A stretch of 64,000 bases of DNA from Polyangiales bacterium (lineage in GTDB: Bacteria; Myxococcota_A; Polyangia; Polyangiales; Ga0077539): positions 608,001 to 672,000 of the forward strand of contig JBGARZ010000002.1 of assembly GCA_044229975.1 (NCBI GenBank), written 5' to 3'. The notes under the pieces are model-generated. The model was not told the DNA's origin and ran no database searches. It worked only from the letters and a program-made list of their open reading frames with translations. Below are positions 35,242 to 39,901 of the stretch, in pieces (positions within the stretch are counted from its first letter, which is position 1; each line of letters begins with the position of its first letter). The position numbers and the translations under genes are program-made.

Positions 35242-35568
35242 ATGAAGCCATCCAGGACCAGGACGCCGGAACTCCACATCGGAGGCCGCATGGACGACGG
35301 CAACGCCTTCATCCGCGACCCGGGCTCCGGCCCCGCACGGACCAAGGACAGCCTCGCGGAGAACCTTGCGGAGCAGTTCCTCACGTCGGCCACGTCGGCG
35401 GAGGAGGCAGGGCAGGAGGAGTTTGACCGCGAGGTGCCCGAGGAGTCGGGCGGCCCCTTCGTGCGATCGAGCGGCGCGAAGGAGTACGCGCGCACCTCCG
35501 ACGCGCCCGACATCCCCGACGCCGAGCGCGAGCCCTTCCCGACGCCCATGCGCGTCGGCCGCCGCTAG
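35242..35568 (+). CDS. Small acidic hypothetical protein
   Basis: SD GAGGAG; 108 aa; LAEQFLTSATS...EESGGPFV...EPFPT. Confidence 0.75.
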   Translation: MKPSRTRTPELHIGGRMDDGNAFIRDPGSGPARTKDSLAENLAEQFLTSATSAEEAGQEEFDREVPEESGGPFVRSSGAKEYARTSDAPDIPDAEREPFPTPMRVGRR

Positions 35569-36632
35569 CGCGCGAGCACCAGCGCGCTGTCTCCAAACTC
35601 GTGCTGGAGGTATCCCCGGCCCGCCGCGAAGCGCAGCGAGGCGTGCAGCAGCGGCGCGCTCGCGAAGGCCGTGAGCAGCGCGAAGTGCGAGGTGCCGGGC
35701 TCGTGCATCCCCGTGAAGATCCCGTCGACGACCCGCGGCGTCGTCCCCTCCCCCAGCACCAGAGCCGTCATCGCCGTGCCCGCGCTGAGCACTCCCTGCG
35801 ATGCATCGGCGCGCCCCTCCAGCGCCCGCACCACGCTCGTCCCCACGGCAATCACCCGACCGCGGCGCGCACGGCAACGCGCCACGGCGTCCACGGTCGC
35901 CTGCGGGATGTCAGAGCGCTCGGGCCACGGCATCGCGGCATCGAGCACCTCGTCTCCCGTCGAGGACAAGCCCGCGGCGTGAGTGATGGCTGCGAGCTCG
36001 ACGCCCGACTCGCGCAGGGCCTGCACCAACGCCCACGAGAGCGGTCGCCCCGCCGACGGCATCTCCAGCGACCACGGTCGCGACGCGAAGGGCGTCTGCA
36101 CATCCCACAGCGCGAGCTCGTCGCGGAGATGCGCGTACTGCACCGGCCGACCGATGGCGTACAGCCGCCGCCAGAACGCGTCGCCCTCATGGGAGAAGCG
36201 CACCGTCACCAACCGCGCCGATCGGTCGGAGCGCGCCTCGACGACCGCGCGCAGATCACCCGCGCAGGTGAGCACCTCGCCCGGTGAGAGCACCGGAGGC
36301 GGAGCGCGGTGCTCCGTGCGGGTGCGCCAGTCCCCGTCGCCGAAGAGCACCACGTCCCAGGCTCCGTCGTCGTGGTGATGGGCGAGGCGCAGCTCCATCG
36401 CTTCGCCCGCGGGGCCCTTCGCGGAGAGCGAAGCCGGGAGCGTCGCCGCGTCGTTGACCACCAGCAGATCGCCCGCCCGCAGGAAGCGCGGAAGGTCTGC
36501 GATGCGGGCGTCTTCCAACGCCTCCGACGACGGGTCGATCACCAGCAGCTTCTCCGCCAGGACGTCGCCCCGCACGCCCGTCGCCGCGGCGAGCACCTCG
36601 TCGCCGTAGGAGCCCGATGGAACGGCGTTCAT
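35565..36632 (-). CDS. QueA-like protein (SAM:tRNA ribosyltransferase-isomerase fold, non-canonical motifs)
   Basis: GDLLVVNDAATLPA, VQTPFA..PWSLEMPSAGRP, RVIAVGTSVVRALE, TGMHEPGTSH, YLQHEFGDS. ATG overlaps the SDR stop (ATGA). Confidence 0.85.
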   Translation of the reverse strand: MNAVPSGSYGDEVLAAATGVRGDVLAEKLLVIDPSSEALEDARIADLPRFLRAGDLLVVNDAATLPASLSAKGPAGEAMELRLAHHHDDGAWDVVLFGDGDWRTRTEHRAPPPVLSPGEVLTCAGDLRAVVEARSDRSARLVTVRFSHEGDAFWRRLYAIGRPVQYAHLRDELALWDVQTPFASRPWSLEMPSAGRPLSWALVQALRESGVELAAITHAAGLSSTGDEVLDAAMPWPERSDIPQATVDAVARCRARRGRVIAVGTSVVRALEGRADASQGVLSAGTAMTALVLGEGTTPRVVDGIFTGMHEPGTSHFALLTAFASAPLLHASLRFAAGRGYLQHEFGDSALVLAR

Positions 36633-37363
36633 GACTGCACCTGCGCGACGAAGCTCGGCGCGTGGAGGCGGTGTCCCGGCGTGATGTTCTCGGCGTGGGC
36701 GATGATGTCCACGAAGCGCTCGGCGACCGCCCCAGGTGCGCTCAGGGTCGCGCGATCGGCGTGGGGCATCGCGTCGGCGTGCATCGCCGTGTCCATCTCG
36801 CCCGGGTCGACGGACACCACGCGCACGCCGCTCTCTTCGAGCTCGGCCGACCAGATGCGACCGAGGTGATCGAGCGCCGCCTTCGAGGCGCCGTACGCGC
36901 CCCACGCGGGGTACGCCTCCACCGCAGCATCGGAGCTCACCAGCAGCACCAGCCCCCGCGCCCCGAGCAGCATCGGCCCGAGCAGCGCCTTCGTCAGCCG
37001 GAACGGCCCCAGCACGTTGACCGCCAGCGCCCGCTCCAGCGCCTCGCAGTCCGTGTCCGCGAGCAACCGCAGCGGAACGTGGCCCAGCGTGCTCGCGTTG
37101 TGCACCACCACGTCGACCCCACCCAGCGCGGCGAGCGCCTGCCCCGCGATGCGGTGGATCGCCTGCTTGTCCCCCACGTCGCCCGCCACCGCGTGCGCCT
37201 CGCCACCCGCCGCCACCACCTCCGCCGCCACCGCGTCGAGCGCGGCCTCGGTGCGTGCCACCAGCGCGAGCCGCGCGCCTCGCCGCCCCAACGCCAGCGC
37301 CAGCGCGCGCCCCAAGCCCGCTCCAGCTCCCGTCACCACGATTCTCAGCCCGTTGATGTCCAT
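36629..37363 (-). CDS. Short-chain dehydrogenase/reductase
   Basis: VTGAGAGLG, VHNAS, SSDA, YGASK and DPGEMDT motifs; SD AAGGAG. Confidence 0.92.
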   Translation of the reverse strand: MDINGLRIVVTGAGAGLGRALALALGRRGARLALVARTEAALDAVAAEVVAAGGEAHAVAGDVGDKQAIHRIAGQALAALGGVDVVVHNASTLGHVPLRLLADTDCEALERALAVNVLGPFRLTKALLGPMLLGARGLVLLVSSDAAVEAYPAWGAYGASKAALDHLGRIWSAELEESGVRVVSVDPGEMDTAMHADAMPHADRATLSAPGAVAERFVDIIAHAENITPGHRLHAPSFVAQVQS

Positions 37364-37406
37364 ATGCCGCGTCACTCCTTCGGTGGTTGGGAGTCTGTGT
37401 CGCGGG

Positions 37407-37461
37407 TGCCAGCCGGTTGGCCGTTCTGCCAATACGCTGGCATCCTGCCAACGCATGGACA
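37407..37461. promoter_or_regulatory. Three tandem 16-bp imperfect palindromes (candidate XRE operators)
   Basis: TGCCAGCCGGTTGGCC (37407-37422), TGCCAATACGCTGGCA (37427-37442), TGCCAACGCATGGACA (37446-37461). Confidence 0.7.
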
Positions 37462-38015
37462 CCCCCGCCGACGTCGCCGAGCGCCTCGCCGCCAACATCC
37501 GCGCGCTGCGTGAAGCCCGCGGGCTCACCCAATCGCAGCTCGCGCGCCAGTCGGGCCTGCCCCGCGCGACGTGGGCCAACCTCGAAAGTGGCGGCGCCAA
37601 CCCCACGCTCGCCGTGATGCAGAAGGTCGCCGTCGCCCTCCAGGTGTCCTTCGAGGAGCTCGTCGCGGCGCCCATCGCGGGCGCGCGCTTCTTCGCGAAG
37701 GACTCGCTCCCGGTGCAGTCCCGCGGGCAGGCGACCATCCGCAAGCTGCTGCCCGACCGCGTCCCCGGAACAGAGATCGACCGCATCGCGCTGCCGCCGG
37801 GCGCGCGCATGACGGGCGTCCCGCACACACCGGGGACCCGCGAGTACCTCACCGTCGAGACCGGCTCCATCGCCCTCACCGCGAGCGGCCAGACGTGGAC
37901 GCTCCAACCCGGCGACGTCCTCGCCTTTCGCGGCGACCAGAAGCACTCCTACGCCAACCCCGGCCGCGGCGCCGCGGTGGGCTACTCCGTCGTGATGCTC
38001 CGACCCGTGGATTGA
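37455..38015 (+). CDS. XRE-family HTH regulator with C-terminal cupin
   Basis: IRALREARGLTQSQLARQSGLPRATWANLESGGANPTL; PHTPGTREYL; GD...FRGDQKHSYAN. Confidence 0.92.
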   Translation: MDTPADVAERLAANIRALREARGLTQSQLARQSGLPRATWANLESGGANPTLAVMQKVAVALQVSFEELVAAPIAGARFFAKDSLPVQSRGQATIRKLLPDRVPGTEIDRIALPPGARMTGVPHTPGTREYLTVETGSIALTASGQTWTLQPGDVLAFRGDQKHSYANPGRGAAVGYSVVMLRPVD

Positions 38016-38051
38016 CCGGCCGCGCGCGATGGGGTTCCACTGCGCGCCCTC

Positions 38052-38891
38052 ATGCTCAACGACCTTCGTTTCGCCTTCGTCGGCGCGGGCAACATGGCCG
38101 AGGCCCTCATCCGCGGGCTCATCGCGTCGGGCGCCGTCCCCGCTTCGCACATCACCGTCTCGGGCCGCCGCCGCGAGCGCACCGACCGCACCGCCGAGCG
38201 CCTCGGCGTCACCGCCGCCACCGACAACGCCCACTGCGTCGCCGGGGCCGACGTGGTGATGCTCTGCGTGAAGCCCCAGGTGCTGCGTGGCGTCCTCGAA
38301 CAGGTCGGCCGCGACATCCCCCGCGAGGCGCTGGTGGTCAGCGTCGCCGCGGGCATCTCGGCCTCGTCCATCGAGGCCCAGCTCGCGCCCGGCCAGCGCG
38401 TCGTGCGCAGCATGCCCAACACCGGCGCCGTCGTGCGGCAGAGCGCCTCCGCCATCGCCCCAGGAGCCAGCGCCACCGAGCGCGATCTGGCCGTCGCCAA
38501 GGACATCTTCGATCGCGTGGGCCGCACCGTCGTCGTCGACGAGGTGCACCTCGACGCGGTCACGGGGCTCTCGGGCAGCGGGCCCGCGTACATCTTCCTC
38601 ATCATCGACGCGCTCGCCGACGCGGGCGTGAAGGTCGGCCTCTCGCGCGACGTGGCCTTGGAGCTCGCCGCGCAGACCGTGATGGGCTCCGCGCAGCTCC
38701 TGCTCCAGACCGGCGAACACCCCGGCAAGCTCAAGGACCAGGTGACCTCCCCCGGCGGCACCGCCATCGCGGGCCTGCACACGCTCGAAGCGGGCGGCCT
38801 TCGTACGACGCTCATCACCGCCGTCGAGACCGCCACACGACGCTCGAAGGAGCTCGGCGAGGCAGCCGCGGCGGCAGCAGCGCACAAGTGA
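38052..38891 (+). CDS. proC: Pyrroline-5-carboxylate reductase
   Basis: FVGAGNMA, CVKPQ, RSMPNT, TGLSGSGPAY, VTSPGGT. Confidence 0.95.
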   Translation: MLNDLRFAFVGAGNMAEALIRGLIASGAVPASHITVSGRRRERTDRTAERLGVTAATDNAHCVAGADVVMLCVKPQVLRGVLEQVGRDIPREALVVSVAAGISASSIEAQLAPGQRVVRSMPNTGAVVRQSASAIAPGASATERDLAVAKDIFDRVGRTVVVDEVHLDAVTGLSGSGPAYIFLIIDALADAGVKVGLSRDVALELAAQTVMGSAQLLLQTGEHPGKLKDQVTSPGGTAIAGLHTLEAGGLRTTLITAVETATRRSKELGEAAAAAAAHK

Positions 38892-38902
38892 GGCGGTGAC
38901 CC

Positions 38903-39901
38903 ATGGACGACGCCGTCAAGATCGAGCACGAGACCACCCCCAACAGCGACGGCTGGGAGCTCTCGCTCCGGCACACCGTCGCCCATCGGACGCAGCACCA
39001 CGGAGATGAGGCCCCGAAGCGCCCCGTGCTCGTGGTGCCGGGCTACGGGATGAACTCGTTCATCTTCGGGTTTCACCCGAGCGGGCGGTCGCTGGAGCAC
39101 CACCTCGCGTGGCGCGGCTTCGACGTGTGGAGCGTGGACTTCCGCGCCCAGGGCCGCTCGCGCTCCACGGGCGGTTCGATGAAGGGCTGGGGACTCGCCG
39201 AGCTCGCCACCGTCGACACCACCGCCGCCGTCGACCACGTGCTCAAACGCACCGGCGCCGCGCAGGTCGACCTCATCGGCTGCTCCCTCGGCACGGCCAT
39301 CATGCTCGGCCACGCCGTACTCGGTGACCGCACCCGCCTCGGGTCGCTCGTCGCCTTCGGTGGGCCCCTTCGTTGGGAAGACGTCCACCCGCTGGTGTCG
39401 GTGGCCTTTCGCTCCCCGCGACTCGCGGCCGCCATCCCCTTCAAGGGCACGCGCGCCCTCGCAGGCTTCGCGCTGCCGTTGCTGCTCAAGACGCCGCTGC
39501 TGTCGATCTATCTCAACCCCAGGAGTTCGGACATGAGCCGCTGGCGCGAGATGATCAACACCGTCGAAGACCCCATTCCCCAGATCAACGGCGAGATCGC
39601 GCAGTGGATCCTCGACCGCGACCTCACCCTCCGCGGCACCAACATCACCCGCGGCGCCGAGACGCTCACCAACCCGCTGCTCTGCGTGGTCGCCCTGCAA
39701 GACGGCATCGTCCCCGTCGAGACGGCGCGCTCGCCCTACCGTCACACCGGCGCGACCGTGAAGGCCATGCTGGAGGTCGGCGACACCGAGCTGCCACACG
39801 CCCACGCCGACCTCTTCCTGTCGCGCGAGGCCGAGGCCCGGGTCTTCGAACCGACGGCACGATGGCTGGCCCAGCCGACTTCCGTGATCGCCGGAGTGTG
39901 A
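38903..39901 (+). CDS. Alpha/beta hydrolase (PhaC/lipase-like)
   Basis: VLVVPGY, DFRAQG, IGCSLG, QDGIVP, HADLF. Confidence 0.8.
   Translation: MDDAVKIEHETTPNSDGWELSLRHTVAHRTQHHGDEAPKRPVLVVPGYGMNSFIFGFHPSGRSLEHHLAWRGFDVWSVDFRAQGRSRSTGGSMKGWGLAELATVDTTAAVDHVLKRTGAAQVDLIGCSLGTAIMLGHAVLGDRTRLGSLVAFGGPLRWEDVHPLVSVAFRSPRLAAAIPFKGTRALAGFALPLLLKTPLLSIYLNPRSSDMSRWREMINTVEDPIPQINGEIAQWILDRDLTLRGTNITRGAETLTNPLLCVVALQDGIVPVETARSPYRHTGATVKAMLEVGDTELPHAHADLFLSREAEARVFEPTARWLAQPTSVIAGV

Follow-up and report, generated by a model that had tools for sequence, protein, structure and literature searches.

A regulated QueA-fold variant encoded with a dedicated short-chain dehydrogenase/reductase in a Polyangiales bacterium

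Introduction

QueA is described in a single role, the transfer of the ribose of S-adenosylmethionine (SAM) onto preQ1-modified tRNA, in the accessible portions of PMC5699537, PMC9092360, PMC1282579, PMC7694415, PMC6313347, and PMC12503941. Its homologues are given as bacterial only in the part of PMC1282579 that is available. A second described system that bears on this work is the SoxR regulon outside enteric bacteria, whose targets are transporters and small-molecule-modifying enzymes according to the accessible part of PMC4146615.

Here, we describe a locus in 64,000 nucleotides from a Polyangiales bacterium (GenBank assembly GCA_044229975.1, contig JBGARZ010000002.1, positions 608,001 to 672,000 of the forward strand), a stretch that we call the window and number from its first letter. 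The locus encodes a QueA-like paralog (QL), a short-chain dehydrogenase/reductase (SDR; the pair is referred to as SDR-QL), and an XRE-cupin regulator. We conclude that it is a real, regulated, and misannotated QueA-fold variant with a dedicated reductase; the queuosine role of QueA is known, and the QL family is undescribed in the literature that we found. No study of SDR-QL was found in the full-text literature, most subscription papers and supplements being outside that scope. In the available portions of three sources, SCO1804 is tabled as QueA (PMC4932002), sco1803 as a dehydrogenase (PMC11272600), and SCO1802-SCO1801 as a kinase-regulator pair (PMC9739842); judged from this gene order, Streptomyces SCO1804 is likely a misnamed QL.

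Results

An initial annotation of the window reported an SDR gene coupled to a gene for a QueA-fold protein through an ATGA overlap, with an XRE-cupin regulator gene divergent from them, and this arrangement is seen in the sequence. The SDR stop and QL start codons overlap at 36629-36632, and the regulator diverges from SDR-QL across a gap of 91 bp. Longer frames are listed over the same genes (35565..38885, 36629..37879, and 37017..38015); the starts used here were set by homology. The locus comprises the following features.

35565..36632, minus strand: QueA-fold paralog (QL), 355 amino acids; PF02547 at 166.5 bits, below both QueA equivalog cutoffs
36629..37363, minus strand: classical SDR of a dedicated subfamily, 244 amino acids; PF00106
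37375..37380, minus strand: AAGGAG ribosome-binding-site-like sequence, 11 bases ahead of the SDR start
37407..37422, no strand: operator-like palindrome 1, 2 mismatches to TGCCAA-N4-TTGGCA
37427..37442, no strand: operator-like palindrome 2, 1 mismatch; top-scoring site genome-wide
37446..37461, no strand: operator-like palindrome 3, 2 mismatches; overlaps the XRE-cupin start codon
37455..38015, plus strand: XRE-cupin regulator, 186 amino acids; HTH_3 and Cupin_2 (Pfam)

GC content at third codon positions (GC3) is 0.89-0.93 in the three genes, and the relatives of the genome by protein similarity are mainly Myxococcota.

PF02547 is the sole Pfam family of QL, with 166.5 bits against a gathering score of 25, while the scores against both QueA equivalog models lie far below their cutoffs (NF001140, 133.6 versus 324 bits; TIGR00113, 96.9 versus 267.45 bits). 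Homologues nonetheless carry the source name S-adenosylmethionine:tRNA ribosyltransferase-isomerase. The five motif changes that had been noted at first reading, RPVQYAH (162-168), EMPSAGRPL (190-198), THAAGLSS (217-224), TGMH (307-310), and HEFGD (344-348), are all present, and alignment to solved QueA proteins backs them; the genome's own QueA ends FSYGD. The QueA motifs PLPPY, AAPTAGLHF, LHVGxGTF, TNFHLP, and (F/Y)SxGD are invariant in 13 QueA rows and replaced in 114 QL rows. The same rows have N60, P66, E238, G264, T265, R269, E272, H310, G347, and D348 in common, residues that may bind SAM. The QL-invariant residues T64, Y166, E190, S193, G308, H316, H344, and E345 stand opposite V, P, A, T, N, L, Y/F, and S in QueA. 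Conversely, QueA-invariant R67, R163, R331, H183, H222, and H225 (numbered as in the QueA of locus L061) are lost in QL, and the lost arginines presumably bind tRNA in QueA. Across 162 paired rows, E190, H310, and H316 occur in all, H344 in 161, and E345 in 157, with Asp in 4; D61 varies (104/162). The near-invariance of the new residues means that selection strongly maintains the rebuilt site, and QL is therefore not a decayed enzyme. The altered motifs form a new invariant His/Glu set that could bind metal, which opens a metal-dependent reading of the chemistry.

In a quick maximum-likelihood tree of 82 rows, one branch (Shimodaira-Hasegawa-like approximate likelihood ratio test [SH-aLRT], 97) sets off 67 QL rows and another (99) sets off 13 canonical QueA rows; QL forms its own branch apart from canonical QueA, and two long plasmid-borne rows fall near QueA. 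The QL model (predicted local distance difference test [pLDDT], 95.8) contains both QueA domains, beta-barrel included, and matches QueA structures only, with Foldseek E values of 1e-23 to 5e-22 and, in VIA, a Z score of 26.6 and a root mean square deviation (RMSD) of 8.9 over 275 residues, the next row having a Z score of 7.9. Fold searches with this model returned nothing beyond QueA, the remaining rows covering the beta-barrel alone at Z < 8, and an ESM Atlas search returned PF02547 clusters only. TM-scores of 0.51-0.53 and RMSD values of 8-10 Å suggest that the modeled domain arrangement is shifted relative to QueA. QL is ~32% identical to the genome's own QueA, and the mean net charge in the QL/QueA comparison differs modestly (-4.2 versus -1.5).

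The SDR retains TGxxxGxG (11-18) and an intact N116-S144-Y157-K161 tetrad. R37, present in 159 of 162 paired rows, suggests that it uses NADP(H), and it would then work in the reducing direction. None of the 25 best NCBIfam families shown reaches its cutoff for this protein, and a sepiapterin- or benzil-reductase-like identity is absent from the top PDB and NCBIfam rows.

Conservation of the SDR linkage, on which the first proposal depended, is clear. In loci from GTDB (counted here and below as the best 80 of 595 matches), the SDR gene lies directly upstream of QL in 79 of 80, the sole miss starting 2 bases from a contig end, whereas tgt is near in 1 of 80; the linkage is far beyond chance. 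Pairing extends to 25 of 25 Bacillota loci, 8 of 8 Deinococcota loci, 4 of 4 full-length archaeal loci, and 10 of 10 Cyanobacteriota-phylum regions. In the metagenome set (80 metagenome loci plus 5 others), SDR is found in 68 of 72 loci with at least 200 bases upstream, and the 4 misses start at most 26 bases from a contig end. Many SDR/QL start-stop pairs overlap across loci. The same 21 of 41 related genomes, which are kin and not independent, carry both QL and the SDR subfamily; 20 carry neither, and among these relatives the subfamily occurs only alongside QL. SDR-QL fusion was set aside as evidence: both Pfam families occur in 11 of 19 long SDR matches, mostly as garbled halves typical of frameshifted assemblies, and P0125 is the only one with both halves clean.

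Canonical queuosine genes lie elsewhere. The genome of the window (G000) has a canonical queA followed directly by tgt at G000:C38:392551-394753, so QL is not its only QueA, and queC-like and queG-like genes are likewise outside the window, in line with the initial annotation, which saw no tgt or other que gene there. QueF gave no match in this 93%-complete genome; queD, queE, and queH were not searched for. All 21 QL-bearing genomes among the 41 relatives have a second, weaker match within the canonical range, not checked individually. In the single GTDB locus with tgt within 5 kb of QL, a separate canonical queA adjoins tgt. The 11.85-Mb replicon of Nonomuraea gerenzanensis carries a response regulator, a GAF kinase, SDR, and QL and has one PF02547-type place, and no Tgt match was found on that replicon among the 60 rows listed, the tally assigning the 11 further rows to other genera. 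QL is the sole PF02547 match in two archaeal genomes, small metagenome-assembled genomes that may be incomplete; both also carry one long, low-scoring TGT-family gene, taken here for the archaeosine enzyme. Tgt was found in 7 of 7 bacterial hosts tested by family search, which counts toward a queuosine link. Taken as a whole, we are confident that QL does not serve queuosine synthesis.

Separately, the queG-like gene (G000:C38:596882-597082) lies ~11 kb before the window start and ~46 kb from the module. A second tgt-family gene of the same genome lies away from queA (L004:1390-2601; G000:C21:28302-29357; 461.8 bits), and two other hosts also have two full-length tgt-family copies.

The module is accessory and patchy. 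A protein search with QL gave 6,985 matches at E ≤1e-20 among 7,996 candidates, with QL and QueA unsorted, and a full-library search gave 417 clusters (50% identity) at E ≤1e-30. The GTDB loci come from Myxococcota, Acidobacteriota, Planctomycetota, Pseudomonadota, Bacillota, Cyanobacteriota, Verrucomicrobiota, and Deinococcota and from two archaeal groups. Matches were found in 36 of 151 sampled genomes of one Bacillota order and 12 of 151 Cyanobacteriota, and in the seed genome only among 151 Pseudomonadota and among 151 Bacteroidota. Sampling of 101 Deinococcota gave 10 matches, 8 of them QL, and 121 Nitrososphaeraceae gave 4 full QL copies and 2 fragments. Three loci titled Heliomicrobium/Enterobacterales (L020, L027, and L044) closely resemble Acidobacteriota and Myxococcota loci, and may reflect wrong labels or recent transfer of the module.

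Structure prediction of SDR with QL gave a complex score of 0.75, a pass on this test, compared with 0.09 for the best of three controls; contact agreement across runs was at least 96%, and partner pLDDT was at least 90. The predicted interface comprises QL residues 59-66, 150-159, 174-186, 200, 213, and 215 and SDR residues 57-82 and 126-133. Among the top 500 interprotein covariation pairs, 11 fall in this interface, versus 3.1 expected. The titles of the four QueA chains found by fold search name no complex with an SDR, so it seems unlikely that the score comes from a memorized structure. The modeling makes it probable that SDR and QL form a physical complex.

Comparison of 49 intergenic regions gave the consensus TGCCAA-N4-TTGGCA, scored with a matrix built from other loci, and the three palindromes of the window, ~20 bp apart, occupy the 91-bp gap and the regulator start. 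Of 48 XRE-bearing loci, 41 have a site with at most 3 mismatches (shuffled mean, 2.1; maximum, 7), as do 3 of the 21 loci that lack an XRE match. An XRE-cupin is near SDR-QL in 49 of 80 GTDB loci and in 7 of 10 Cyanobacteriota-phylum regions, where it accompanies a different QL clade (Pfam check on one). H124, E130, and H164 of the regulator are conserved in 48 of 49 aligned copies and form a possible metal site; no ribosome-binding site was seen ahead of its ATG. Palindrome 3 covers the start codon, which would imply autorepression, and the XRE-cupin may act as a repressor at all three palindromes until a signal from redox stress or from the pathway releases it. In line with the suggestion that this regulator controls the pair, it has a conserved operator of its own; the cupin is a putative sensor.

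Other lineages place different regulators beside the pair. In Rhizobium, SDR-QL is divergent from an annotated soxR. In that sub-clade, SoxR, which scores above its equivalog cutoff and carries its cysteine motif, is divergent in 29 of 42 loci with at least 1.3 kb upstream, and a SoxR-box-like palindrome with 0-2 mismatches occurs in 34 of 35 SoxR loci; the same search in loci without SoxR gave 5-7 mismatches in 16 of 17 scanned. A SufR-like regulator with three spaced cysteines is found in 12 other loci of the metagenome set (127 bits, below the cutoff of 178.8), and the same type occurs in Nitrososphaeraceae (3 loci), Deinococcota (2 loci), and the Cyanobacteriota phylum (1 locus). Cysteine-rich GAF kinases with NarL-type regulators lie 3' of the pair in some Bacillota and Deinococcota (the kinase also in L244), and one locus has a Rieske-GAF-sigma54 activator. 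The cysteine-rich GAF kinases may resemble the iron-sulfur sensor AirS, and the Nonomuraea GAF protein may resemble the heme-binding DosS. In the tree, SoxR and SufR-like loci nest within the XRE-rich clade, suggesting that regulators were swapped while the pair was kept. A regulator that can be exchanged for iron-sulfur-type sensors points to redox stress, and by this comparison the cupin may sense a related signal.

SufR-like loci have conserved inverted repeats of their own, TAAAG-N6-CTTTA-like and CAAG-N6-CTTG-like, which are candidate operators. They are located as follows.

Upstream of SDR: L162, L165, L167, L169-L172, L174, L175, L189, L192, L216
Also: L243, L248, L251

A glyoxalase/vicinal oxygen chelate (VOC) gene lies 3' of QL in 24 of 25 Bacillota loci, as found with a profile built from the same loci, and Pfam confirms PF00903 in five of these genes. 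A glyoxalase-type gene is also placed between SDR and QL in L248 and is fused to SDR in L252 (L252:3008-4096 in G357; 363 amino acids, directly upstream of QL). These VOC partners have a His-Glu-His-Glu pattern, and their best named matches, below cutoff, are glyoxalase I and methylmalonyl-CoA epimerase. Single loci carry an ABM-SDR fusion (P0129), a flavin adenine dinucleotide (FAD) monooxygenase, a redoxin, and an arylamine N-acetyltransferase. In a cyanobacterium, a small ParB-N-like gene without an NCBIfam match lies upstream of SDR (L074:3436-3714); we presume that it resembles sulfiredoxin.

Two plasmids carry QueA-like genes of other types. On Sinorhizobium meliloti GR4 plasmid pRmeGR4a (L087:5366-12360), a distinct QueA-like gene (PF02547, 253 bits) without SDR has E at the E190 and E345 positions. 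Its neighbors encode SnoaL-like, PqqD-like, radical SAM-SPASM, and B12 radical SAM proteins, a pyridoxal phosphate (PLP) decarboxylase, and a CPBP protease, and the run has the look of a cluster for a peptide or natural product, with QueA chemistry possibly in use there. Salmonella plasmid p6M-54 (L221:4365-8119) carries a third type on a long branch, with the motifs LEIPSAG and DMFGD; a MarR regulator/FAD oxidoreductase flanks it on one side and a RidA gene on the other, and IS26 and an integron are close by.

Around the module itself, a 108-amino-acid acidic open reading frame (35242-35568, plus strand; GC3, 0.93) has a stop codon overlapping that of QL (CTAG) and gave no match in Pfam or NCBIfam. 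Downstream of the XRE-cupin gene, proC (above cutoff) and an alpha/beta hydrolase gene follow at 36- and 11-bp spacing (38052-39901, plus strand) and may share its transcript; they were dropped as module members, as they do not recur in other loci. Rfam gave no match in 14 loci of the family.

Discussion

The initial annotation proposed a two-enzyme system that performs QueA-like SAM chemistry and redox on another substrate. The parts that stood are that QL is not the genome's QueA, that the SDR link is conserved, and that the XRE-cupin has an operator of its own; SAM use, another substrate, and a cupin ligand are putative. We lean toward redox-stress chemistry on a small molecule as the role of the pair, and propose more tentatively that SDR and then QL act to reduce and cap it. 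Oxidative stress would induce the operon, and the SDR would use NADPH to reduce a reactive small molecule of the quinone, phenazine, or dicarbonyl type. QL, bound to the SDR, would cap the reduced product with the ribosyl part of SAM through its retained core, a metal on H310, H316, H344, E345, and E190 activating the acceptor in place of tRNA-bound preQ1. The cap would block reoxidation, and the glyoxalase-type partner, where present, would open or isomerize the product. We favor reduction followed by capping because it would account for SoxR control, for the constant pairing, and for a QL that kept the core yet lost the QueA arginines, and it agrees with the small-molecule-modifying SoxR targets named in the accessible part of PMC4146615. 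A more specific form, in which bacteria and archaea use the complex of NADPH reductase and metal-bound QL to lock redox-cycling toxins with a SAM-derived cyclopentyl cap, is a speculation that we hold loosely; if true, QueA chemistry would have been freed from tRNA in a widespread detoxification system, a conjugation route that is new and that has come under unrelated iron-sulfur sensors several times over.

Several observations weigh against this proposal. With four of the QueA motifs rebuilt and D61 variable, QL may have lost SAM chemistry. SDR residues S144, Y157, and K161 lie outside the predicted interface, so any hand-over from site to site is conjectural. The mark applied to the complex score, reached by 116 of 157 solved pairs and 2 of 215 mismatched pairs, is only a rough calibration, as our runs had their own alignments and two ligands including SAM, with the ligands unscored. 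Covariation is weak in that the top 25 pairs include a single interface pair and named contacts are widely scattered in rank. The correlation of SDR and QL pairwise identities (r 0.94, 162 pairs) speaks for the pairing but is inflated by shared ancestry. The window has an XRE-cupin and not SoxR, so the case for redox control at this locus is borrowed from its relatives; no soxR adjoins the pair in the window, a distant soxR in G000 not having been searched for. Of the QL tree rows, 20 of 67 have no adjacent regulator, and no other regulon member appeared at the 8 next-best genomic operator sites inspected. No glyoxalase gene adjoins the pair in the window, and no transporter recurs beside it among clustered neighbors. 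SufR-like and GAF sensors presumably report the iron-sulfur or oxygen state of the cell, and control by them would suit a foreign compound and an internally formed damage product equally.

Clean-up of such an internal product, derived from SAM or a nucleoside, is nearly as likely as reduction and capping. The SDR would oxidize or reduce a ribose hydroxyl or carbonyl, QL would be a metal-dependent lyase or isomerase cleaving that product, and the glyoxalase-type partner would isomerize the dicarbonyl so formed; SAM-like compounds would be substrates removed, not donors, in presumed analogy to LuxS and S-adenosylhomocysteine hydrolase. The new invariant His/Glu set, the His-Glu-His-Glu pattern of the VOC partners, the general iron-sulfur-type sensors, the lack of a linked transporter, and the occurrence of the pair in ammonia-oxidizing archaea all suit this explanation. 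It sits less well with SDR R37 (159/162), which points to NADP(H) and hence to a usually, though here only presumably, reductive direction; with an accessory occurrence that is patchy (21 of 41 relatives, and 1 of 151 genomes in each of two phylum samples); and with the antibiotic-like small molecules on which SoxR targets outside enteric bacteria act in the accessible part of PMC4146615. An unlikely alternative is iron or nitric oxide (NO) handling, with QL binding one or two irons to rebuild iron-sulfur clusters or remove NO-derived species and the SDR giving reducing power. Four near-invariant histidines (218/219, 310, 316, and 344) and several invariant carboxylates in QL, a number that we assume to resemble the ligand count of di-iron repair proteins, would serve such a role, as would the SoxR, SufR-like, cysteine-GAF, and one Rieske-GAF regulators. 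Yet the fold is that of QueA, the structural matches include no iron protein, the recurrent clustered neighbors include neither suf nor isc genes, and SDRs pass hydride to carbonyl-type acceptors, not single electrons.

The remaining explanations keep QL on RNA. A role in modifying or repairing some RNA that is not preQ1-tRNA, in which QL would transfer ribosyl as QueA does and the SDR would then reduce the product, is a little less credible still: both QueA domains are kept, beta-barrel included, and the net charge shift is modest (-4.2 versus -1.5), but the QueA-invariant arginines are lost, genes for RNAs or RNA-modifying enzymes do not recur in the vicinity, and the predicted complex has the SDR covering QL 59-66 and 174-186, which align to the QueA motifs VIPAR and RYQT, for which we infer a tRNA role. 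That QL is a second, stress-induced true QueA making epoxyqueuosine on tRNA is very improbable. PF02547 is its sole Pfam family, sources label its homologues as the QueA enzyme, and most bacterial hosts tested have Tgt (7/7); against this, the equivalog scores are far under their cutoffs, the motifs are switched, the pair is present in archaea and, without a Tgt match, on the Nonomuraea replicon, and a fixed SDR partner is something that QueA does not need.

Whether or not reduction and capping by SDR-QL proves correct, the family has consequences for annotation and chemistry. Carried under the QueA name in databases, it would inflate predictions of queuosine synthesis. The pair may reveal SAM chemistry of a new kind or add an arm to redox-stress defense. 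With its constant partner, predicted complex, new invariant active-site residues, and putatively inducible promoters in culturable hosts (Rhizobium etli, Myxococcus, and Neobacillus), the family has a reaction that is directly testable.

Among known systems, QueA (EC 2.4.99.17; PF02547; NF001140 and TIGR00113; PDB 1WDI, 1VKY, and 1YY3) has the two-domain fold of QL, which keeps N60, E238, GT(T/S), R269, E272, H310, and GD; QL differs in being paired with SDR and not tgt, in being regulated, and in being found without Tgt and in archaea. The SoxR regulons of Pseudomonas aeruginosa and Streptomyces coelicolor (PMC4146615, accessible part) resemble one SDR-QL sub-clade in the divergent soxR, the SoxR-box-like palindrome, and the small-molecule-type enzymes; the window differs in its XRE-cupin and the lack of a recurrent transporter, and no QueA-fold protein is among the regulon members named in that part of the source. 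The window SDR shares the Rossmann glycine motif, the tetrad, and the WGAY motif with classical NADP(H)-dependent SDRs (best profiles, PDB 4Z0T and YciK-type 3I1J; NF006509) but meets no NCBIfam cutoff among the 25 best shown. Finally, the PuuR-type XRE-cupin (NF007408) has the same HTH_3 and Cupin_2 domains, is divergent from its operon, and has an operator over its own start, while the window regulator scores 35.6 bits against a cutoff of 211 and has its own operator, TGCCAA-N4-TTGGCA.

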